A stretch of 56,589 nucleotides of DNA. It comes from a phage. The stretch lies in sequence record PZ445422.1, one strand, 5' to 3'. The notes below the pieces were generated by a model that worked only from the letters and a program-made list of their open reading frames with translations, was not told where the DNA came from and made no database searches. Positions 2,843 through 16,506 of the stretch are shown here, piece by piece. Numbering within the stretch: position 1 is the stretch's first letter; each line of letters starts with the position of its first letter. The position numbers were made by a program, and so were the translations under genes.

Positions 2843-3166
2843 TTAGGTCACATTAATAACACATGTACCAGTAACACTATCCTTTGCCTTGGACGTTACT
2901 GTCAAGTTTGAAGTACCGCTGCTTTCGGTTGTGGTCACGGTAATTGTACCGTCCCCGTTGTCTTTAATTGTAGCAGAGGAACCGTCAACTGACGCGCTAT
3001 ACGCTTTGTTTGTAGTTCCGCCTGGGACAAAGTTTATTTTAACAGTAACCGTTTTTACTTCTGAAGTTGTGGTGTCAATCTTAGCAGGATCGAGAGTAAT
3101 CGAAATTGGCTCCACCTGCAACGATTTTTCCATCAAGTCATGTCGCTCATAACGTTGATAACGCAT
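2843..3166 (-). CDS. Ig-like domain protein (possible head decoration)
   Basis: 107 aa, Thr/Val-rich beta-strand pattern (TVTVKINFVPGG...TITVTTTESSGTSNLTVTSKAKDSVTGTCVINVT) resembling bacterial Ig-like folds; immediately after capsid gene. Confidence 0.4.
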   Translation of the reverse strand: MRYQRYERHDLMEKSLQVEPISITLDPAKIDTTTSEVKTVTVKINFVPGGTTNKAYSASVDGSSATIKDNGDGTITVTTTESSGTSNLTVTSKAKDSVTGTCVINVT

Positions 3167-3236
3167 GGTTGTTCTCCTAAAAAAGAGGGGACATAAGATG
3201 TCCCCAAAATACTACAGCGCGGCGTTGAGTGAAGCC

Positions 3237-4298
3237 TTAGGAACCCTGATACTCACGAGTGATCAGGCGTGCAACTTTAAGCTGCTTGCGCTCAGGGAAC
3301 GCACGACGCCAGGAATCTTCATGAGCCAGGTTGTTAGTGGTAGCAGCGTTAGACGGACCACCTTTAGCAGTTTGAGCAGCAGCCCAAGCATGGCCAACCG
3401 GATGCAGAATCCATTCAACACGGTTGTGAAGAACTTCTTCACCAGCGCCTTGGTTAGCGGCTTCGTCACGCACCACAGCGGTCGGAACTTTCGGTGATCC
3501 AGCACCCATTGCAGTTGCGCCCGGGCCGAACAGCCAGCTTTCAAACACACCAGTAGACGGATCGTGTGGCATGGAGTCGTCTTCAATAATACGCAGACCC
3601 TGATAATACTCAAACTGAGTTTCACCGCGAGCATCTGGAATGAAGTCGATCAGGTTCAACTGACGCATACGGTTACGAACGGTAGAGTGTACCATAATCA
3701 TAGTCAGACCGCGGGCAGCATCACCCATCGTTGCAGTTGCGTTGATGAAGTTAGACGCGGTAAAGTTGGTCTGGTTATTTACAAAAGAAGAACCAGAGAT
3801 GTCGAAAGTCAAATCGTCACCATGTGATTTCTTCGCATTAGCAAATACACCTTTCCAGGTTGCGATGTATGCAGCTTGCAGACGGCGAACCCACCACGCA
3901 GACACGCGGTTACCGATAGCGGTCATTGGGTCGTTACCAATCAAAGCTGATACCAGATCCGCAGAACCCCAGGATTTTGAACGACTCATACGAACCTGAA
4001 CTTCAGATCCGGTAGTGATGTTAGACGGTTTGGACGGATCGCCTTTATCAACCGCGATATCTTCGTCTTCATCTTTCAGGTCGTTATAGAACGGCTCGTT
4101 AAAAGTCAGACCTGCACCAGCAAGGTTAGCAGATAAACGCTCGTCCATTACGACCGCACCGGATTGAATCAGAGCAGAAAGTTCAGCGGTCTGCGTCTGC
4201 ACATAACCAGTGAAGATCTCAGGGACAATGACATCCTTCAAACGAGTCAGGTCAGTTTCACCACGACCAAATGGCAGAATAATTTTAGATTTAGACAT
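3237..4298 (-). CDS. major capsid protein
   Basis: 353 aa ORF directly downstream of scaffold and portal genes; size and order typical of major capsid; no catalytic motifs. Confidence 0.65.
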   Translation of the reverse strand: MSKSKIILPFGRGETDLTRLKDVIVPEIFTGYVQTQTAELSALIQSGAVVMDERLSANLAGAGLTFNEPFYNDLKDEDEDIAVDKGDPSKPSNITTGSEVQVRMSRSKSWGSADLVSALIGNDPMTAIGNRVSAWWVRRLQAAYIATWKGVFANAKKSHGDDLTFDISGSSFVNNQTNFTASNFINATATMGDAARGLTMIMVHSTVRNRMRQLNLIDFIPDARGETQFEYYQGLRIIEDDSMPHDPSTGVFESWLFGPGATAMGAGSPKVPTAVVRDEAANQGAGEEVLHNRVEWILHPVGHAWAAAQTAKGGPSNAATTNNLAHEDSWRRAFPERKQLKVARLITREYQGS

Positions 4299-4340
4299 AC
4301 TTGTCTCCAGGAAAAGGATTGATTTGTTTACTGTTGGTAG

Positions 4341-4400
4341 CCTTTCCCCGTGGAAGGCTGTTTAGGAACCCGTGTCCCTGATGTGTTGAAACTTAACATC
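4341..4400 (-). promoter_or_regulatory. two stable RNA hairpins between scaffold and capsid genes
   Basis: inverted repeats agccttcc/ggaaggct (4341..4361) and tccctgatgt/acatcaggga (4370..4400) in the 120 nt gap between two co-oriented genes. Confidence 0.3.
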
Positions 4401-6896: not shown

Positions 6897-8456
6897 TTAA
6901 ATACCGATAGTTTTGCCAACACCTGTATAAACAGCTTGATCCAGAACCATATAACGAACTTCATCACCCATATGGTCTTCACATTCCGTATCAACGTCGT
7001 CCTGATCTACTTCATCGCGAGGTAGACTTGGAACCAGCTCAAAGAAATAGTTGCAGTTATCAAAAATGTACATTGCTGGATTCTCGCGCGGACCGGGCAA
7101 AGGTTTACCGTTCGCATCTTCCCGCAGTGCAGCTTTAAGAAACTCACGCATTTTCTGCCAGCCCCGTTTACGTGACCCAGCAGACTTATCACTGCGCTTC
7201 CAATGTATACCGTTGTATAACTTCCCGTTAAGACGAATTTTCTTCGCCATTGTTGCAGCGGTGGAGTTATTGTTCTCCAGATCCCAAATGGAGTTATCCG
7301 CAGGACCAGGAACTACACGATCGTGTATACCCCAGGCCAATTCCCGCTCCAGTATACCGCTTGCAATTTCTGAGTCCAGCAAATGTAGACCTTCGTTTGT
7401 TTTACCGTTGGTCCCATACCATTCGTTAATCCTAAACAGGTCACCGCGGACCGTGGAGAATGTAGTGCCATCTTCACGCACAACATCCGAACCATCACTA
7501 ATAGCCCACCAACCGACAGAGAACGGTTTTGAAGAACCCCAGTCGAAAGAACGTGTAATCTTCCAACTCGCTGGAATCGGGAATGGTCGTACTTTGTGAA
7601 CAGTGCTACGCCACAGGTCATCGAACATACCACCGGATGTAATATCCCAGCTCCCGCCCAACCATGCAGCACGCTTGTTCGGGTCTGTGATAGACATAAG
7701 TTCTGCAATATATTTTGGACTTAGGTTTTTGTTTTCACGGTACGAACCAAAGATATGGCATTGCGTCGTAACCACATCTTCGTCTTTCTGCGTCCTCGGG
7801 TTAAACACTCGCGTAGTCTTCCTGAGTATTTTACCCATCGGTGCAGCGTCAATGAAGCGTTTCTTAACCCAGTTATGCCCCGCACCAAACGGGTTACTGG
7901 TAGCAAACACTTCAAGAGGGATATCCGGTAAATATGTGACCGTACCATCTGGATTGATAATTGGGTTATCTTCTGGTAAGAAAGATGAACGGTTACAGGA
8001 CATCATAGCTTCAAACAAACGCCCGTCCGGATATTTTGTTAATTCGTTCCATCCGATAAATGGGTATTCGTGACCGTGATAAGACCAGTAATCCTTTTCT
8101 TTACAAGCAACGCGGAACAATAGCTCTTCACCTGTAGGCCAAACCCATTTATAATCAGACTTAGAGCTAAGGAATTTAGCCCCGTCTTTAAATTCAGGAA
8201 ACCAGCGCTGGGATTTAGTTACAAGGTCATCAAGGTTTTTATATTCACGGTCGAATATAATGCCCTTCCAAAACTTACCGTACCCTACACCAACATTCTT
8301 ACGGAAACGCATAAGCTGGCAGTCCGTTTTTCCAGGACCGCGAGTTCCGTGGTATAGGATAATATCAGCGGGGCAGGATAGAGCGAGTGTCTGTGAACCT
8401 GGATGAGGTTTCCAGACGACTCGCAGCATGTTATCAGGTTGTCGGTTTAGCTCCAT
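6897..8456 (-). CDS. terminase large subunit
   Basis: 519 aa; Walker A-like GTRGPGKT near N-terminus and C-terminal nuclease-region pattern FATSNPFGAGHNWV; overlaps small terminase end. Confidence 0.8.
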   Translation of the reverse strand: MELNRQPDNMLRVVWKPHPGSQTLALSCPADIILYHGTRGPGKTDCQLMRFRKNVGVGYGKFWKGIIFDREYKNLDDLVTKSQRWFPEFKDGAKFLSSKSDYKWVWPTGEELLFRVACKEKDYWSYHGHEYPFIGWNELTKYPDGRLFEAMMSCNRSSFLPEDNPIINPDGTVTYLPDIPLEVFATSNPFGAGHNWVKKRFIDAAPMGKILRKTTRVFNPRTQKDEDVVTTQCHIFGSYRENKNLSPKYIAELMSITDPNKRAAWLGGSWDITSGGMFDDLWRSTVHKVRPFPIPASWKITRSFDWGSSKPFSVGWWAISDGSDVVREDGTTFSTVRGDLFRINEWYGTNGKTNEGLHLLDSEIASGILERELAWGIHDRVVPGPADNSIWDLENNNSTAATMAKKIRLNGKLYNGIHWKRSDKSAGSRKRGWQKMREFLKAALREDANGKPLPGPRENPAMYIFDNCNYFFELVPSLPRDEVDQDDVDTECEDHMGDEVRYMVLDQAVYTGVGKTIGI

Positions 8457-8991
8457 CTTCAGTCTCTTTAACTAGTCGTTGTTGAGACTCGGATGCAGTT
8501 TTTTCCCATTCGTCAATATTTGCTACAGCAGGGACTATCATTACGCCGCCTCTGTTAGTAACATCAATCTTAGCCTTCTTGGGAGCATCCAAATCATAAA
8601 TTTGTGCAAGCTTGCCCAATGCGGCGACTCTAGCAGCTTGAGAAGATCCCGGTCCTGTATAATGAGCTTCACGTTTTAATGCTTCAATGATATGCTGACG
8701 CTCAAGGTCTGCTTCAATGTTAGCTTGCTCAGAAGTACGTTGAACACGGGATCTTTCAATCTCCTTGAGCTTCCATCGAACATAACAGTCCGTGGCAAAG
8801 CGTTGGCCAAGCTCCTGTGCAAACATAGCATTGAACCCGCATCTCATGCAAGCGTTAGTCCAATTGTAGTCGAACATGTACTCAGCAACAACTTTGTCAC
8901 GTATTGCCATCTCTTCAGCGGACAAGCTATTTGCATACTGGATGTAATTCGTCCAGTCACGATCATATTGCTCTTGACTTGCCCCGTTCAT
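8434..8991 (-). CDS. terminase small subunit candidate
   Basis: 185 aa ORF overlapping the start of the large terminase by 23 nt; position-based. Confidence 0.5.
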   Translation of the reverse strand: MNGASQEQYDRDWTNYIQYANSLSAEEMAIRDKVVAEYMFDYNWTNACMRCGFNAMFAQELGQRFATDCYVRWKLKEIERSRVQRTSEQANIEADLERQHIIEALKREAHYTGPGSSQAARVAALGKLAQIYDLDAPKKAKIDVTNRGGVMIVPAVANIDEWEKTASESQQRLVKETEDGAKPTT

Positions 8992-9011: not shown

Positions 9012-9317
9012 CTATTTAGGCTGAATATAATTGCTTGATCCTACAAAATCAAGCGAAACATTTTCAGCTTCATAGCGTATGATTTCCTTAACCCTCAGTT
9101 TACATTCAGTCAGAGCTGTTTCTGTATCCTGCAAACGTTGGATAATGTCCCTTGTATAAACCAAAGGATATTTATCAACTTCCCGACATTCTACCAACAG
9201 ATGGGCCGGAAGTTTTATCTTCACTATCTGCGGCGGTGGTGGAGGTTGTATCTCCGTCGAGCAGCCTGCGCAAATCATCAGGAACACGCTCATTAAGATA
9301 AGCTTTGACGTCGGCAT
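9012..9317 (-). CDS. Rz1: o-spanin (Rz1-like outer membrane lipoprotein); true start may be internal
   Basis: hydrophobic leader with lipobox LMICAGC followed by PPPPPQ proline run; ORF begins inside the i-spanin gene in another frame. Confidence 0.55.
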   Translation of the reverse strand: MPTSKLILMSVFLMICAGCSTEIQPPPPPQIVKIKLPAHLLVECREVDKYPLVYTRDIIQRLQDTETALTECKLRVKEIIRYEAENVSLDFVGSSNYIQPK

Positions 9318-9651
9318 TGCTTTTCTCCAGTGCTTTTAATTTGTCCTGAAGCAACCTGTGGTTATGTTGCTCACTTTCAATTGCTGAAGCCAATTTTCGA
9401 TAGGATTCAGTATCCTTCTCCCGTTGGGATGCAAGAAATACAACAGCTTCGCCCAGCTTTGCATTGTCCCGTTCTACAACGGTTAGTCTTTGCTCAGCAT
9501 GATTTAAATTAGTTTTGCTGAGCTCGTTCTGTGACCACAAGTATGCAGCCACCCCGCATAAAAACACAACCGCGCCGATCATCAAATACTCGATAAACAG
9601 ACGCGGTTTAGTTTTTATAAAACTGAAGAAGTTATTTAGAATCGTTTTCAT
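9175..9651 (-). CDS. Rz: i-spanin (Rz-like)
   Basis: 158 aa; N-terminal TM segment (LMIGAVVFLCGVAAYLW) then long charged helical region; overlaps Rz1-like ORF and follows holin. Confidence 0.55.
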   Translation of the reverse strand: MKTILNNFFSFIKTKPRLFIEYLMIGAVVFLCGVAAYLWSQNELSKTNLNHAEQRLTVVERDNAKLGEAVVFLASQREKDTESYRKLASAIESEQHNHRLLQDKLKALEKSNADVKAYLNERVPDDLRRLLDGDTTSTTAADSEDKTSGPSVGRMSGS

Positions 9652-9976
9652 GTTTGCAGTCCCCTGAATCGAGTTTAACCCCTGTCCGTGAAGCTATAAG
9701 CGACGTTAGGGCTTTTAGCGTAGCACGTGAACCTGCCCAAGCAAATAGGCCAGCAAGGCCAAAAGCGAACCAAAGGCTGATGTTAAACTCCCTGTAGATC
9801 GCATACATTATAACGCCAAAGAAAGCGGCGGATAAGCCTTCAAGAAACGCAATACTTGCTCGTACTTTCTTACCAGCGTCTATTGTACGCATGACATAAC
9901 CGAGAGCTCCCCCAATGAGGGAGATAAACGCAAACCCCGCTAGAACTGCCCAATGTTCGTTGGGTGAATTGAACAT
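9632..9976 (-). CDS. holin (three predicted TM segments)
   Basis: 114 aa; three hydrophobic stretches and charged C-terminal tail; sits between endolysin candidate and spanins. Confidence 0.55.
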   Translation of the reverse strand: MFNSPNEHWAVLAGFAFISLIGGALGYVMRTIDAGKKVRASIAFLEGLSAAFFGVIMYAIYREFNISLWFAFGLAGLFAWAGSRATLKALTSLIASRTGVKLDSGDCKHENDSK

Positions 9977-10012
9977 GTTCCCTCCAAATAAAAGGGGCTA
10001 ACGCCCCGTCAG

Positions 10013-10450
10013 TTAAAGTACCATTGCAATAGCGCGGTTAATTACGTCGTCGGTATAGGGCATCATGCCATTTTCATGACGAATGATTGCTTTCACCAAT
10101 CCTGACATAATTGACTTGTCGAAGACATTAATTGGATCGTTAGGTTGAACACCAATTGCTTTGGCAACAGAGCGAATATACGCTTCCGTATCGTTTTCGT
10201 TAGGCGGTGCCCAGCGAGCGATAATTTCACGTACAGTGTCGATGTTTTTCTTACCCACATTGGGCAAGCCTTCACGTTTGGTGTAGTTTGTCAGGATTTT
10301 CGCTAACGCACGAATGCCGTAAATCGGTTGCGTGAATTGAGCAAAAGATTTATCGGTTCGCTTATCAGCAGGAACTAAGCCCTGCCAATTATCACCCCAG
10401 CGAATATTGCCTGGATTGTTATTACGAATACCACGAGGTTGAAGTGCCAT
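10013..10450 (-). CDS. putative endolysin / cell wall hydrolase (family not assigned)
   Basis: internal ATG at 10450 with GGAGG RBS (preferred over the 235 aa track ORF); 146 aa starting MALQPRGIRNNNPGNIRWGDNWQG; directly upstream of holin. Confidence 0.4.
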   Translation of the reverse strand: MALQPRGIRNNNPGNIRWGDNWQGLVPADKRTDKSFAQFTQPIYGIRALAKILTNYTKREGLPNVGKKNIDTVREIIARWAPPNENDTEAYIRSVAKAIGVQPNDPINVFDKSIMSGLVKAIIRHENGMMPYTDDVINRAIAMVL

Positions 10451-10532
10451 ATCGAGTTCCTCCGCTTGACATGAACCACTCAAGGGTAACAGAGAAACTT
10501 GATACGGCGCAAGGAGAATTGATCTAAGGAGA

Positions 10533-10793
10533 TTACCCGTCAAACCACTCGCTAATGTACCAGCTAACAAGGCTTTTTCCACCTTTATCGACCCCGTAGC
10601 TGGAGTAAAAAGTGAAGTTATCTGGTTCGTGTTGCAGGATAACCATAAAGTCATGCTGAGTGCTGTCAATAATTGCAATGGCGATTTCCTCGTTATCTGT
10701 GATAAAGATTTCGCCACCAATTACAACATGCGTCCCGTGGTCAACTACCTTACTATGATAAGCAGGTGGGATCAGGTGACTGAATGTAGTCAT
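10533..10793 (-). CDS. hypothetical protein
   Basis: 86 aa ORF co-oriented in accessory block. Confidence 0.4.
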   Translation of the reverse strand: MTTFSHLIPPAYHSKVVDHGTHVVIGGEIFITDNEEIAIAIIDSTQHDFMVILQHEPDNFTFYSSYGVDKGGKSLVSWYISEWFDG

Positions 10794-11258
10794 TTAAAAA
10801 CCCTCAAATGATATTGTATCAACTCCCAGGAATGCGCATGTGGTGTGTTTAATTGCCAACTCAATAGCTTCGCTCGCACTTGCACCAGCAGCTAACGCGC
10901 CAGCAGCAAACACACAACCGCTACCCTCAGACCCCCATCCATCCAGCATGGGCTCGCTCAAAGTACCATCATTATAAATAAAATGGCAAGTACCTTCCGG
11001 AGTGACAGCAAGACCGCAAGTTTGCCCGTAATCATCATCTTTACTGTAAAGTTTAATATCAGGGAACTTAACAGGTTCCGCGCTATTAAAATAACGCAAC
11101 ACCTGATCGGTAAATGCTGTAAGGCCGCACAAGCCCAGTAAAAACCGTCCACGATGTCCATTTACGCTATGAACTTTCTTATAAGCAGTCACAGCTTCCC
11201 CGCGCATAACTCCACGGTCCGCAGCTAATACTTTTCCATCGAACGCAATTGTGGTCAT
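10794..11258 (-). CDS. Ntn-hydrolase family protein, HslV/proteasome beta-like
   Basis: N-terminus MTTIAFDGKVLAADRG (Thr directly after Met as in HslV MTTIV...) and GSEGSGCVFAAGALAAG block resembling the HslV GSGG..A..AL region. Confidence 0.45.
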   Translation of the reverse strand: MTTIAFDGKVLAADRGVMRGEAVTAYKKVHSVNGHRGRFLLGLCGLTAFTDQVLRYFNSAEPVKFPDIKLYSKDDDYGQTCGLAVTPEGTCHFIYNDGTLSEPMLDGWGSEGSGCVFAAGALAAGASASEAIELAIKHTTCAFLGVDTISFEGF

Positions 11259-11440
11259 TTAACTTTCCTTTGGTCTTGGATAATAACAATGCATAAAACA
11301 AATAGAATAAGACAGATGCAAAGCCCTGTACTTGCAAAGATTCGGATAACCGTGGAAGGTTGTTCGACTACTGTATAGGTATAAAGCCCAGCGAACATCA
11401 ACGTCGCAAATAAAAACAATCCGGCGTATAGTTTGGTCAT
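11255..11440 (-). CDS. small membrane protein
   Basis: 61 aa, two hydrophobic segments (LFLFATLMFAGLY, LCICLILFVLCIVII). Confidence 0.4.
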   Translation of the reverse strand: MTKLYAGLFLFATLMFAGLYTYTVVEQPSTVIRIFASTGLCICLILFVLCIVIIQDQRKVK

Positions 11441-11502
11441 TGTGTACCCCTCTTATTCGATGGGTACACAATACAATGAAGGGTTATGTGATAGCAAGAA
11501 AA

Positions 11503-11928
11503 TTAATAAGGCAGGATTTCAACGTCTTTGACCCAAGTATGAATGATAAAAGCTCCAGGCTCTTCAGGATCTTGATCCGGACCAACATAGAACTTTTTAC
11601 CTTCCCATCCTTTAATTGGATCATGCACAATAAACTTGTGATCCGTCATATCAATCACAATCTGGTGCAATGCGCCAGGAATATTAAGACTTGGCACCGT
11701 GCATAGGAACAAACCTCCCATATGCAAAGTTTCACGCCCACCACCTTCTGAACAATGATGCTGGACGCCGTTTTTAGTCAAATATTCGCTGATAGTGATT
11801 TCCCAGTTGTTATAATAACGACTATGAAATTCCTCAATGACCTTCTCAACAGGTTTATTAAGGATCATTGCCAAACACGCAGAAACGCATGTATTTAAAG
11901 TTGGCTGTTTGACAAAATTTACTGACAT
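11503..11928 (-). CDS. papain-like cysteine peptidase candidate (C39-like motif)
   Basis: QPTLNTCVSACLAMIL resembles the C39 catalytic-Cys block (Q....DCG.ACL.MI); downstream His-containing KFIVHDP. Confidence 0.35.
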   Translation of the reverse strand: MSVNFVKQPTLNTCVSACLAMILNKPVEKVIEEFHSRYYNNWEITISEYLTKNGVQHHCSEGGGRETLHMGGLFLCTVPSLNIPGALHQIVIDMTDHKFIVHDPIKGWEGKKFYVGPDQDPEEPGAFIIHTWVKDVEILPY

Positions 11929-11929
11929 T

Positions 11930-12400
11930 TTATGCCTCGTATATGACTTCCGGCTCGTTATTATAAGGACGCAGCAGCAAACGCGCTACCAGCGCCGTAC
12001 GCTCGCTTAACCCTTGCGGATGTACAAACCCAACGAACTGGTAATGACAGCCGCGCAGGTGGTGCAAGCTCTTAGCACAATGACACGCTTCCAAACGCAG
12101 TGTCTCACCCGACTGCCATTTAACCACAATAGTAGAGCTCGCGGTCATGTTAATTTCTACATCACCAATATCAATTTGAAGATATAATAAATCCTCAAGA
12201 ATATTGCGGACGTAAACGAGGATCTGTGATGTGGGCATAACAATAAGCCCGTTCCAGTCTTTCCCGCGCCCCAGTCCACAATAACGCACAAAATTACAGA
12301 CCAACTGAGTCTCTGTAACCTGTTTTACTTCAAATGACTTCTTCAGTTGGCAGTCTTTGGATTCGTCCATTGCATCAACAATAGTTTTAACGTCAGCCAT
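11930..12400 (-). CDS. hypothetical protein
   Basis: 156 aa ORF abutting neighbours. Confidence 0.45.
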   Translation of the reverse strand: MADVKTIVDAMDESKDCQLKKSFEVKQVTETQLVCNFVRYCGLGRGKDWNGLIVMPTSQILVYVRNILEDLLYLQIDIGDVEINMTASSTIVVKWQSGETLRLEACHCAKSLHHLRGCHYQFVGFVHPQGLSERTALVARLLLRPYNNEPEVIYEA

Positions 12401-12403
12401 TAT

Positions 12404-12796
12404 TTACTCCGCTAATGTGTAAGGGATACCGGATGCTTTAATCCGTCTGTACATATCCATAGTACCAGCTCCGCCAGGAAACACAATAGCGTGATCTGGT
12501 TTAGGATCAGTATCCAGCATTAATTGGTTGCGGTAAGCGCCTGCTTGTGCATTATAAGCACCCTTGGCGTTATACCGTATCTTGGTATTTGGTAAGGAAA
12601 GATTGTCCCACGGGGCTGGGAACGCTTCTGTCTTAATACCGTTGCGCTCTGCCCAATGTGCGCAAATCCGGTCAACACCGTCAGCGTCACCGTGGCGAAG
12701 TGTGGTTATCCTTCTTTGCATATGCAGCTTATCCAATTGAGCGTAAATATACTCCACATGCTTAAAATCTCGACCTCCGGTGACGACTAATAGCAT
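12404..12796 (-). CDS. SLOG-family (DUF2493/YspA-like) nucleotide-binding protein
   Basis: MLLVVTGGRDF...HGDADGVDRICAHWA...AIVFPGGAGTMDMY matches the Rossmann-like SLOG pattern (GGR, GxDxxA, GGxGT). Confidence 0.5.
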   Translation of the reverse strand: MLLVVTGGRDFKHVEYIYAQLDKLHMQRRITTLRHGDADGVDRICAHWAERNGIKTEAFPAPWDNLSLPNTKIRYNAKGAYNAQAGAYRNQLMLDTDPKPDHAIVFPGGAGTMDMYRRIKASGIPYTLAE

Positions 12797-12859
12797 TATT
12801 TCTTCTCCAATGGTTTCAACATTTCGTCAATAAAGCCTTTCCAATATTTGATATTTTCT

Positions 12860-13414
12860 TCAATCACCAATAACCTCCTTAAAACGGTTATACAAATCAC
12901 GATAGAACAAAGGACCATATTTATTACGACGCAGGAAGTCCTTTGCTACAGCTTCCAGAGCTTCGCAGCGATCACGCAACTCTTGAGCCTTCTTCTCGGT
13001 ATGCACCCACACCTCTTCGCTGCTCACACCAGGCGGATTCATTGCACCAACAATTTGACGCAAACGAATATAAGAATCGGATAGAGCGCGCTCAGCAGCA
13101 CGCATGTTGACAAGATCCGTCTCAGCATTTTCTGCACGTTCTTCCTGAGCACGCCATTCAGCTTCTAGCTGGTCAATGCGCATGTCACGATAGCCCAGCT
13201 CCGCAGCAATATCACCTTTGCTGTGCAAACCTTCGGATGTCATTGCCATAACATGGCGGGAGTAATAACCTCCAGCTTGATCCAGCTCCCAAGCATCACG
13301 CTCACGATATAAACAATCGCACTCCACCAGAATAGGATCACCCCACGGTTGAACTCCACCACTATCAACCATTCCCGTTCCGTTACATTTTTGACAGATC
13401 ATTATTATCTCCAC
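12860..13414 (-). CDS. hypothetical protein with N-terminal zinc-ribbon-like Cys cluster
   Basis: CQKCNGTG ... CDC near N-terminus; charged helical C-terminus. Confidence 0.45.
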   Translation of the reverse strand: MEIIMICQKCNGTGMVDSGGVQPWGDPILVECDCLYRERDAWELDQAGGYYSRHVMAMTSEGLHSKGDIAAELGYRDMRIDQLEAEWRAQEERAENAETDLVNMRAAERALSDSYIRLRQIVGAMNPPGVSSEEVWVHTEKKAQELRDRCEALEAVAKDFLRRNKYGPLFYRDLYNRFKEVIGD

Positions 13415-13629
13415 CTGTTACGGTCATTGCATTTATATTCATACTCAGTAATAACCTGAGGATACATTGACATAACATTACCTTTTGCATCGTAAATATA
13501 TTGCCAAATAATATCATCCCGGCTGTTACCAGTACGTTGGCAGTTTTGCCGCTCCATTTCTTTAGAGTCTACAATTGCAAATACAACGAAAGCGGCAAGT
13601 ATAACGCCTAACACCATGAGTAAGCGCAT
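13405..13629 (-). CDS. small membrane protein
   Basis: 74 aa, N-terminal TM (LLMVLGVILAAFVVFAIV). Confidence 0.4.
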   Translation of the reverse strand: MRLLMVLGVILAAFVVFAIVDSKEMERQNCQRTGNSRDDIIWQYIYDAKGNVMSMYPQVITEYEYKCNDRNRWR

Positions 13630-13705
13630 AAACTATCCCATCATTAAATCTAACTTAGCTATAAGGAATAAAGCAACAGCAAAAGCTATTATAAATGTCG
13701 TAACT

Positions 13706-14002
13706 TCAGCCGCGGACATCTTTAATCTCCTTCAACGTATCGCGCCAGTCCGCACCTTCAATGTCAACTTCGCCGCAGTAGCGAACATGCAAACCGTATA
13801 CGCCAAGCATCCATTGCTTACCAGATTCATAGCAAGAAGGTTTGGCGTCATAACAATGTACTTTACCGTCTGCGTCTACAGCGATAAAGTTAGCCCAGGG
13901 CTCAACAGGGACAGCAGACCCGTAATAGTCGGTAAATACTTGCGTCTCCTTGTTAACGGAAGGAATCGCGTGTCCAGTTTCGTCCATTCCTAAATACAGC
14001 AT
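13706..14002 (-). CDS. hypothetical protein
   Basis: 98 aa ORF; hairpin gggctc/gagccc just upstream (14024..14040). Confidence 0.45.
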   Translation of the reverse strand: MLYLGMDETGHAIPSVNKETQVFTDYYGSAVPVEPWANFIAVDADGKVHCYDAKPSCYESGKQWMLGVYGLHVRYCGEVDIEGADWRDTLKEIKDVRG

Positions 14003-14158
14003 AACAACCTCCAGATAATTAAGGGCTCCTTAGAGCCCATTATAGATTGATAATTACACTTCCTCCAGGAAATTGGCGCCTACAAGACCAGTATAACTGA
14101 TTTCGTAAGCATCCTCTTCTTCATCGTATTTATCGCTACCCTGGCTAACAATTACAGT

Positions 14159-14338
14159 ATGGTTCCACTGCCCGAAAAGCTATGCAAATCAAACACCACC
14201 TTATTAACAGTGACAATAGAACCAGCTTTCAGTTCCTGGAACTCCGTACCATCGCCCGGAGTATACCCAACACCGCCAATATCGGTCAGTAAACGATACT
14301 CTTTACCTTCAACAATCTCTTCTACACGCATTCTTCCT
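14159..14338 (-). CDS. small hypothetical protein (about 59 aa, below ORF-track cutoff)
   Basis: own translation of minus strand: MRVEEIVEGKEYRLLTDIGGVGYTPGDGTEF...; fills the gap between neighbouring co-oriented genes. Confidence 0.3.
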
Positions 14339-16289: not shown

Positions 16290-16506
16290 ATCCGACGCCG
16301 CCTTATATGTATGCATGCACGCGTGTAGACCGGATCGTGTGATATTAGTTATGCCATTGGTGCTAATATGCAATGCAAGCATGATTTTCACTAGACGCAA
16401 AATAATTCTAAAATAGCACTTTTGGCCTATTCAATATCACGATGCATCGCTATTATGTACCCATAGCAACACGGTACTACTTCTTAACCACACTTGGAGG
16501 CGCGTT

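Follow-up and report, generated by a model that had tools for sequence, protein, structure and literature searches.

A predicted proteasome homologue, C39-like peptidase and SLOG protein in one cassette of Escherichia phage GottfriedDienst (Bas21), upstream of its genes for lysis and packaging

C39 enzymes cleave their substrates after Gly-Gly, and the same junction is found in ubiquitin-like conjugates. The YAcAr family of nucleotide-binding proteins was reportedly defined by Burroughs and colleagues in 2015, in work that is also said to cover the viral YpsA-like/YAcAr SLOG domains. According to the portion of a later survey that was available to us, the prediction for SLOG domains of viruses is that they interfere with ADP-ribose-derived immune signals (Iyer et al. 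2022, PMC9503650). The phage proteasome homologues (PPH), a family of unknown function, are described in the accessible part of Fuchs, Alva and Lupas (2021, PMC8665760) as proteins of about 140 residues from Caudovirales and prophages that have no propeptide, lack helix H2 and the C-terminal S12/H5 elements, and have BPH and HslV as their nearest relatives. Here we analyse a phage DNA of 56,589 nucleotides (record PZ445422.1; the whole stretch is called the window below), in which one tightly packed cassette, placed directly upstream of the genes for lysis and packaging, encodes an HslV-like protein, a C39-like protein, a SLOG protein, a further protein that we call p156 and two small proteins.

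The window is the entire genome of Escherichia phage GottfriedDienst (Bas21, MZ501071.1; Queuovirinae, Seuratvirus), reverse-complemented and rotated. The 3-kb region around the cassette is 100% identical to that of GottfriedDienst, and the same region is present in ~35 related phage records at 93-98% DNA identity. A preliminary description of the window had singled out three open reading frames (ORFs) as an accessory trio next to the lysis genes. The ORF listing contains them at exactly the same coordinates, 10794-11258 (HslV-like), 11503-11928 (C39-like) and 12404-12796 (SLOG); all three lie on the minus strand, which the description did not give.

The HslV-like product has 154 amino acids and contains the two motifs, MTTIAFDG and GSGCVFAAGAL, from which a resemblance to HslV and proteasome beta subunits had been proposed, and the homology and the catalytic set were both upheld. 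In PHROGs the protein matches phrog_1040, 'peptidase HslV family' (5.4e-32), and as a single sequence it scores 15.4 bits with the Pfam Proteasome model, below the gathering threshold of 22.4. A profile was built from 17 aligned homologues, drawn from a large protein collection and reaching down to 30% identity; compared with solved structures, it matches HslV at 2.2e-8, BPH at 3.7e-7 and proteasome beta5 at 1.2e-4. An hhalign comparison with E. coli HslV gives a probability of 93.4% over residues 1-133 and aligns T2, D14, K28 and the GSG motif to the catalytic residues of HslV. M1, T2, D14, G45, G112 and G114 are invariant in the 17-sequence alignment, K28 occurs in at least 90% of the sequences, and S113 is present here. 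The predicted nucleophile, Thr2, is thus conserved in 17 of 17 homologues and stands opposite the catalytic Thr of E. coli HslV; it follows the initiator Met directly, leaving no propeptide. The segment opposite HslV residues ~65-90 (the second helix) is deleted in the phage profile. By these comparisons the protein is a predicted compact proteasome homologue with a Thr-Asp-Lys set, a Gly oxyanion residue and the GSG motif, and it fits the PPH family as judged against the published description. The same protein recurs, at 100% amino-acid identity, in 23 other phage records, and the gene differs from that of Aeromonas phage SD04 by 9 synonymous and 0 non-synonymous substitutions.

The preliminary description had likened a block near the start of the 141-aa product of 11503-11928 to the active site of C39 peptidases. 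This block, QPTLNTCVSACLAMIL, is present, and a fold comparison gives a papain-like fold that is closest to C39 domains. With the Pfam model PF03412 the protein scores 14.3 bits against a cut-off of 22, that is, below threshold, over residues 3-25 only. Among 61 diverse representatives of the family, Q8, C14, H88 and D103 (as well as P104) are invariant, C14 being the predicted nucleophile, and the Pfam C39 model reaches E < 0.01 for five of the 61, at best 2.4e-6. An exhaustive profile search returned 823 cluster representatives, of which 503 match at 1e-10 or better; the majority stand alone and have a length of ~140 amino acids. These invariant residues, the stand-alone relatives and the sparse Pfam scores together point to a divergent, catalytically intact, stand-alone clade of C39 type, and we accordingly describe the protein as a predicted C39-like cysteine peptidase that stands alone and carries a Gln-Cys-His-Asp set. 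In some relatives, from metagenomes, the N-terminus is extended by a stretch that resembles MazG when judged by eye. The family is present in 197 phage records, close homologues of the Bas21 protein being confined to Queuovirinae-like phages, and dN/dS (the ratio of non-synonymous to synonymous substitution rates) of the gene is 0.07-0.09. A search of PDB sequences with the family profile gave zero matches.

For the 130-aa product of 12404-12796, the earlier assignment to the SLOG fold was borne out by a match to the Pfam family YAcAr (PF10686, 4.9e-18; 65.2 bits against a threshold of 28.2) and by the SLOG motifs themselves. VTGGR, HGxAxGxD, AGxxRN and PGGxGT (here PGGAGT) are common to five phage homologues, the Gly-rich loop after strand 1 and PGGxGT being invariant. 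The catalytic Glu of LOG enzymes (PGGxGTxxE) is replaced by Met115, and this Met is invariant in the five-sequence alignment. From its motifs, the protein is classified as a putative nucleotide-binding SLOG protein of the YAcAr family, without the catalytic Glu found in LOG enzymes. Compared with its nearest phage homologues it contains an insertion of 15 amino acids, and dN/dS against phage SD04 is 0.057. The family occurs in 788 phage records; elsewhere it adjoins a primase and a methyltransferase, or a DNA polymerase and DpdA, and in ICP1 HelB a SLOG domain is fused to an SF1B helicase. The SLOG protein of Providencia phage PSTCR7 (locus 3031-3546) carries an extra N-terminal, Cys-rich part of ~55 amino acids, possibly a zinc ribbon, which is missing in Bas21. 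DarA of phage P1 ('defense against restriction protein A', PDB 9ukm) was considered as a relative and rejected: it is the sole PDB match of the profile, over the AFPGGAGTEKMV (PGGAGT) stretch, and its E value of 0.4 is insignificant.

Single-sequence PDB searches with the HslV-like, C39-like and SLOG proteins gave nothing useful, and NCBIfam and PADLOC gave zero matches for any cassette protein. Every gene of the cassette is under purifying selection, with dN/dS from 0 to 0.14. On these grounds all three ORFs are judged to be functional, well-conserved Seuratvirus genes, and the three fold assignments, taken with the neighbouring lysis and packaging genes, are far beyond chance. Each of the three belongs to an already known phage gene family.

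The genes and the one intergenic element of the region are as follows, in the order of transcription.

12860-13414, minus strand: Zn-finger/coiled-coil protein, 184 aa; first in the transcribed order, upstream of the SLOG gene
12404-12796, minus strand: putative SLOG protein, YAcAr family, 130 aa; PF10686 4.9e-18; phrog_289
11930-12400, minus strand: p156, predicted dead paralogue of the TerL ATPase domain, 156 aa
11503-11928, minus strand: predicted stand-alone C39-like papain-fold cysteine peptidase, 141 aa; phrog_4049
11439-11502, minus strand: intergenic hairpin element, between the C39-like gene and tm61
11255-11440, minus strand: tm61, hydrophobic protein, 61 aa; phrog_22841
10794-11258, minus strand: predicted HslV/proteasome-beta homologue, PPH-like, 154 aa; phrog_1040
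10533-10793, minus strand: p86, 86 aa; phrog_23528; abuts the stop codon of the HslV-like gene
10013-10450, minus strand: endolysin, downstream of the cassette
9632-9976, minus strand: holin, downstream of the cassette
9012-9651, minus strand: spanins, downstream of the cassette
8434-8991, minus strand: TerS, downstream of the cassette
6897-8456, minus strand: TerL, downstream of the cassette

The position beside the lysis genes is therefore as had been described, the cassette lying directly upstream of endolysin, holin, spanins, TerS and TerL. Within it, the SLOG gene and p156 are separated by 3 nucleotides (nt) and p156 and the C39-like gene by 1 nt; after a gap of 62 nt, the stop codon of tm61 and the start codon of the HslV-like gene share ATGA, and the stop of the latter joins the start of p86 as TAAATG. 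The product of tm61 probably has two membrane spans, as judged by eye from its sequence. The 12860-13414 product has an N-terminal CxxCxGxG motif resembling a zinc finger, followed by a long predicted coiled coil, and its PHROG matches are weak only. In the gap between endolysin and holin, a GC-rich hairpin with a T-run lies at 9994-10007 on the minus strand. The annotation of phage Seurat lists it as a terminator, an unusual feature inside a lysis cassette.

The protein encoded between the SLOG and C39-like genes, p156, appears to derive from the terminase of the phage itself. In hhalign, its residues 35-126 align with residues 49-137 of the large terminase subunit (TerL) at an E value of 1.7e-5, and Smith-Waterman scores against TerL are higher than those of every shuffle; z is 5.5 for the protein from the window and ~10 for two homologues. 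When ~15,000 ORFs were searched with a hidden Markov model (HMM) of p156, the sub-threshold matches were TerLs only. Like the TerL ATPase domain, p156 has the same fold and detectable sequence homology (TerL residues 43-137); unlike TerL, it has lost the Walker A loop and the acidic residues of Walker B, and a nuclease domain is missing. The Walker A sequence GTRGPGKTD of TerL aligns to FEVKQVTE in p156, and the Walker B sequence FIGWNE to FVGFVH. The protein is thus predicted to be a catalytically dead paralogue of the ATPase domain of the phage's own TerL and, judging by these replaced residues, cannot serve as a packaging ATPase. The family is found in Seuratviruses only and is under purifying selection.

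A dead terminase paralogue is relevant here because TerL of the sister phage Bas22 triggers the immune sensor Avs2 (KpAvs2; PMC11564622). We considered p156 as an Avs2 decoy and downgraded this possibility, since KpAvs2 still protects against Bas19-25 and TerL is the only Bas22 protein predicted to bind it (PMC11564622); p156 would therefore not be an effective block of the sensor.

The 62-nt gap between the C39-like gene and tm61 contains an inverted repeat (11439-11452 and 11459-11472) that forms a hairpin of 12-14 bp, with a predicted RNA folding energy of -20.1 kcal/mol (z -3.5). The hairpin covers the Shine-Dalgarno sequence and the AUG of tm61 and would divide the cassette into two translation units. 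The gap is nearly identical in five phages, including the divergent Seuratvirus Salmonella phage STP-SP5; there the genes on either side have reached saturation at synonymous sites, yet the gap is kept. The element occurs once in the genome, and Rfam has no match in 9900-14200. Candidate roles are those of a translational operator, of a palindrome bound by a protein, or of an internal promoter (TTGCTA-18-TATTGT, 8/12 matches). The conservation of the hairpin suggests that SLOG-p156-C39 and tm61-PPH-p86 are probably regulated separately. A copy of the half-site with one mismatch, ATTATGTACCC, lies at 16452-16462 on the plus strand, in the intergenic region from which the leftward and rightward gene blocks diverge; the number of such copies is within chance.

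The reading that we favour, and hold tentatively, is that the three genes encode separate accessory enzymes rather than parts of one machine; these would be catalytically competent, would act in the infected cell and would have a common accessory slot before the lysis and packaging genes. The HslV-like protein would probably lose its Met, self-assemble into rings and degrade proteins. It may need a host unfoldase such as HslU, since the annotation of the related genome CAjan, like that of the Bas21 and Seurat loci, contains no AAA+ unfoldase of the HslU type. The C39-like enzyme would probably cut a protein of the host or the phage at a specific site, and the SLOG protein would probably bind or process a nucleotide-derived ligand, as the literature proposes for viral SLOG domains. 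Their most likely role would be manipulation of the infected cell, either host takeover or counter-defence, in the middle-to-late phase. A counter-defence role would be plausible; defence-system models have no matches for the cassette proteins, and we found no experimental literature on these cassette genes.

Among the alternatives, the one that survives best places the HslV-like protein in packaging or morphogenesis. In this case the protease, perhaps together with p156, would act on the terminase, the scaffold or head-completion proteins, or would regulate packaging, rather than act on the host. The genomic surroundings of the family speak for it: in other phages HslV-like genes lie directly before TerS/TerL, in the gap between TerL and portal, or in the gap between the adaptor Ad1 and the head-closure protein Hc1. 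Packaging or head-completion genes occur within 5 kb in 55 of 77 loci, and TerL occurs within ~4 kb in 35 of the 77, abutting in 6. The derivation of p156 from TerL, and the fact that no prohead protease is annotated in CAjan, also fit. However, the HslV-like gene does not lie in the gap between portal and capsid, the usual site of a prohead protease, and positions beside terminase genes are typical of accessory 'moron' genes too. In other phages, C39-like and SLOG genes belong to replication or early regions, and the main text of the virion proteomics study of Pantoea phage Vid5 (PMC6266253) does not report the trio proteins. We consider such a role unlikely.

A second alternative concerns whether the three genes form a unit. 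The preliminary description had suggested a joint host-takeover or counter-defence unit, and this suggestion held in part: the three genes are neighbours again in Vid5 and PSTCR7, but the families are mostly unlinked elsewhere, and SLOG is absent or replaced in relatives. One form of the idea is an integrated module in which the SLOG protein senses or destroys a nucleotide alarm signal and controls or aids the peptidases, which remove defence effectors or protein conjugates. The search of related loci (tblastn and HMM) showed SLOG-C39-HslV directly adjacent in PSTCR7 and C39-SLOG-HslV adjacent in Vid5, with overlapping stop and start codons in both. Including Seuratvirus (Bas21), where the genes are clustered, the trio therefore recurs in three genera and in three gene orders, despite only 26-43% amino-acid identity between the proteins of the three phages. 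Loss of the LOG catalytic Glu would fit a sensor, and the Gly-Gly specificity generally known for C39 enzymes would match the junction of ubiquitin-like conjugates.

Against such a module, SLOG is missing from the loci examined in Nonagviruses (JenK1) and Klebsiella phage vB_Kpn2-P2, which contain C39, a 117-aa ORF and HslV. In STP-SP5 (locus 3644-4350), a 68-aa ORF and a 167-aa ORF resembling an HNH homing endonuclease occupy the position of SLOG, indicating that SLOG is dispensable in, or has been displaced from, this cassette. Viral contigs were also scanned; a narrow C39 alignment gave only 4 loci, and the counts come from a rerun with a broader alignment. Of ~58 non-Seuratvirus contigs with a C39-like gene, only 6 have an HslV-like gene within 6 kb, in 5 of them 3.6-5.6 kb downstream. 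Conversely, 0 of the 77 other HslV-like loci have a C39-like gene within 6 kb, and 1 has SLOG. Fusions among the three domains are absent among the matches listed, and no defence model matches.

Each family has its own usual genomic home. For example, the C39-like gene occurs in the nin-like region of lambdoid-type phages, after the replication genes and before a holin, with NinB-like, NinG-like and Q-like genes (called by eye) downstream; in Kuttervirus it is flanked by the two genes for topoisomerase II subunits, and a gene for a MazG-like pyrophosphatase lies two genes upstream of it (Salmonella phage SeF6a, 2431-6745). Since the lambdoid and Queuovirinae layouts place these regions side by side, part of the adjacency may reflect genome layout. 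Moreover, Bas21, Vid5 and PSTCR7 come from related ~60-kb siphovirus lineages, so that shared ancestry can explain why the trio is adjacent. Taking both sides together, we regard an integrated module as quite doubtful. A still more elaborate version, which we hold to be improbable, is a coupled counter-defence module in which the SLOG protein would bind or destroy a nucleotide or ADP-ribose-derived alarm signal, the peptidases would remove effectors or ubiquitin-like conjugates, and p156 would be a decoy or modulator of terminase-recognising host sensors or of the packaging motor.

Finally, the peptidases might aid lysis, for example by cleaving cell-wall peptides or by controlling holin and antiholin, but this is very improbable, because no signal peptide or membrane anchor is evident in the sequence of either peptidase, the families are mostly not beside lysis genes in other phages, and a full set of endolysin, holin and spanins is already present.

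Returning to separate accessory enzymes as the favoured explanation, four points weigh against it. First, in a motif scan, sites resembling promoters and terminators are as numerous as in shuffled sequence, so that operon boundaries cannot be read from the scan; that the cassette belongs to a late operon, as the preliminary description put it, is something that we infer. Second, HslV-like genes usually lie in packaging modules, which could mean a role in virion assembly. Third, a regular-expression scan of the genome for an ORF with a double-glycine leader found none that is credible, its two hits both being implausible ORFs. Fourth, in Vid5 and PSTCR7 the stop and start codons of the trio overlap; this favours some functional coupling, a point that a description as separate enzymes underplays.

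The PPH family has so far been known from sequence analysis only, and in the literature available to us we found no assigned function; a member is now located in a genetically tractable phage of E. coli K-12 that belongs to the BASEL collection. PPH-type genes usually reside in packaging or head-completion modules, and in Queuovirinae-like phages they travel with a C39-like peptidase and SLOG. Three 'hypothetical proteins' can now be tested as enzymes whose nucleophiles are named. We found no earlier description of the recurrent trio, of the dead paralogue derived from the terminase or of the conserved hairpin; they are modest additions, and current concepts are unchanged unless a function is demonstrated.

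Compared with known systems, the SLOG protein resembles the viral YpsA-like/YAcAr SLOG domains, as far as their available descriptions go, in scoring above the Pfam threshold, in its SLOG motifs and in being stand-alone and phage-encoded; unlike them, it is not accompanied here by a Macro, NADAR or Nudix partner, and its position beside two peptidases is not described in the available portion of the viral SLOG literature (PMC9503650). The C39-like protein differs from the C39 domains of bacteriocin ABC transporters (PCAT1, ComA) in being a stand-alone protein of 141 amino acids that is not fused to a transporter, and from double-glycine proteases in that the phage genome has no credible leader-peptide ORF and its Pfam score is below threshold. 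Like bacterial HslV (ClpQ), the HslV-like protein is a predicted Ntn threonine peptidase that is homologous at the profile level and keeps the equivalents of Thr1, Asp17, Lys33, Gly47 and GSG; unlike HslV, it is ~20 residues shorter, has no annotated AAA+ partner of the HslU type and is sub-threshold with the Pfam Proteasome model. The closest likeness is to PPH as described in the accessible part of PMC8665760, with which it shares a compact subunit of ~140-155 amino acids, an occurrence in tailed phages and prophages, the MTT start and HslV and BPH as closest relatives. Beyond that account, the present comparison adds the terminase, portal and head-completion context of the family and its association with a C39-like peptidase and SLOG.

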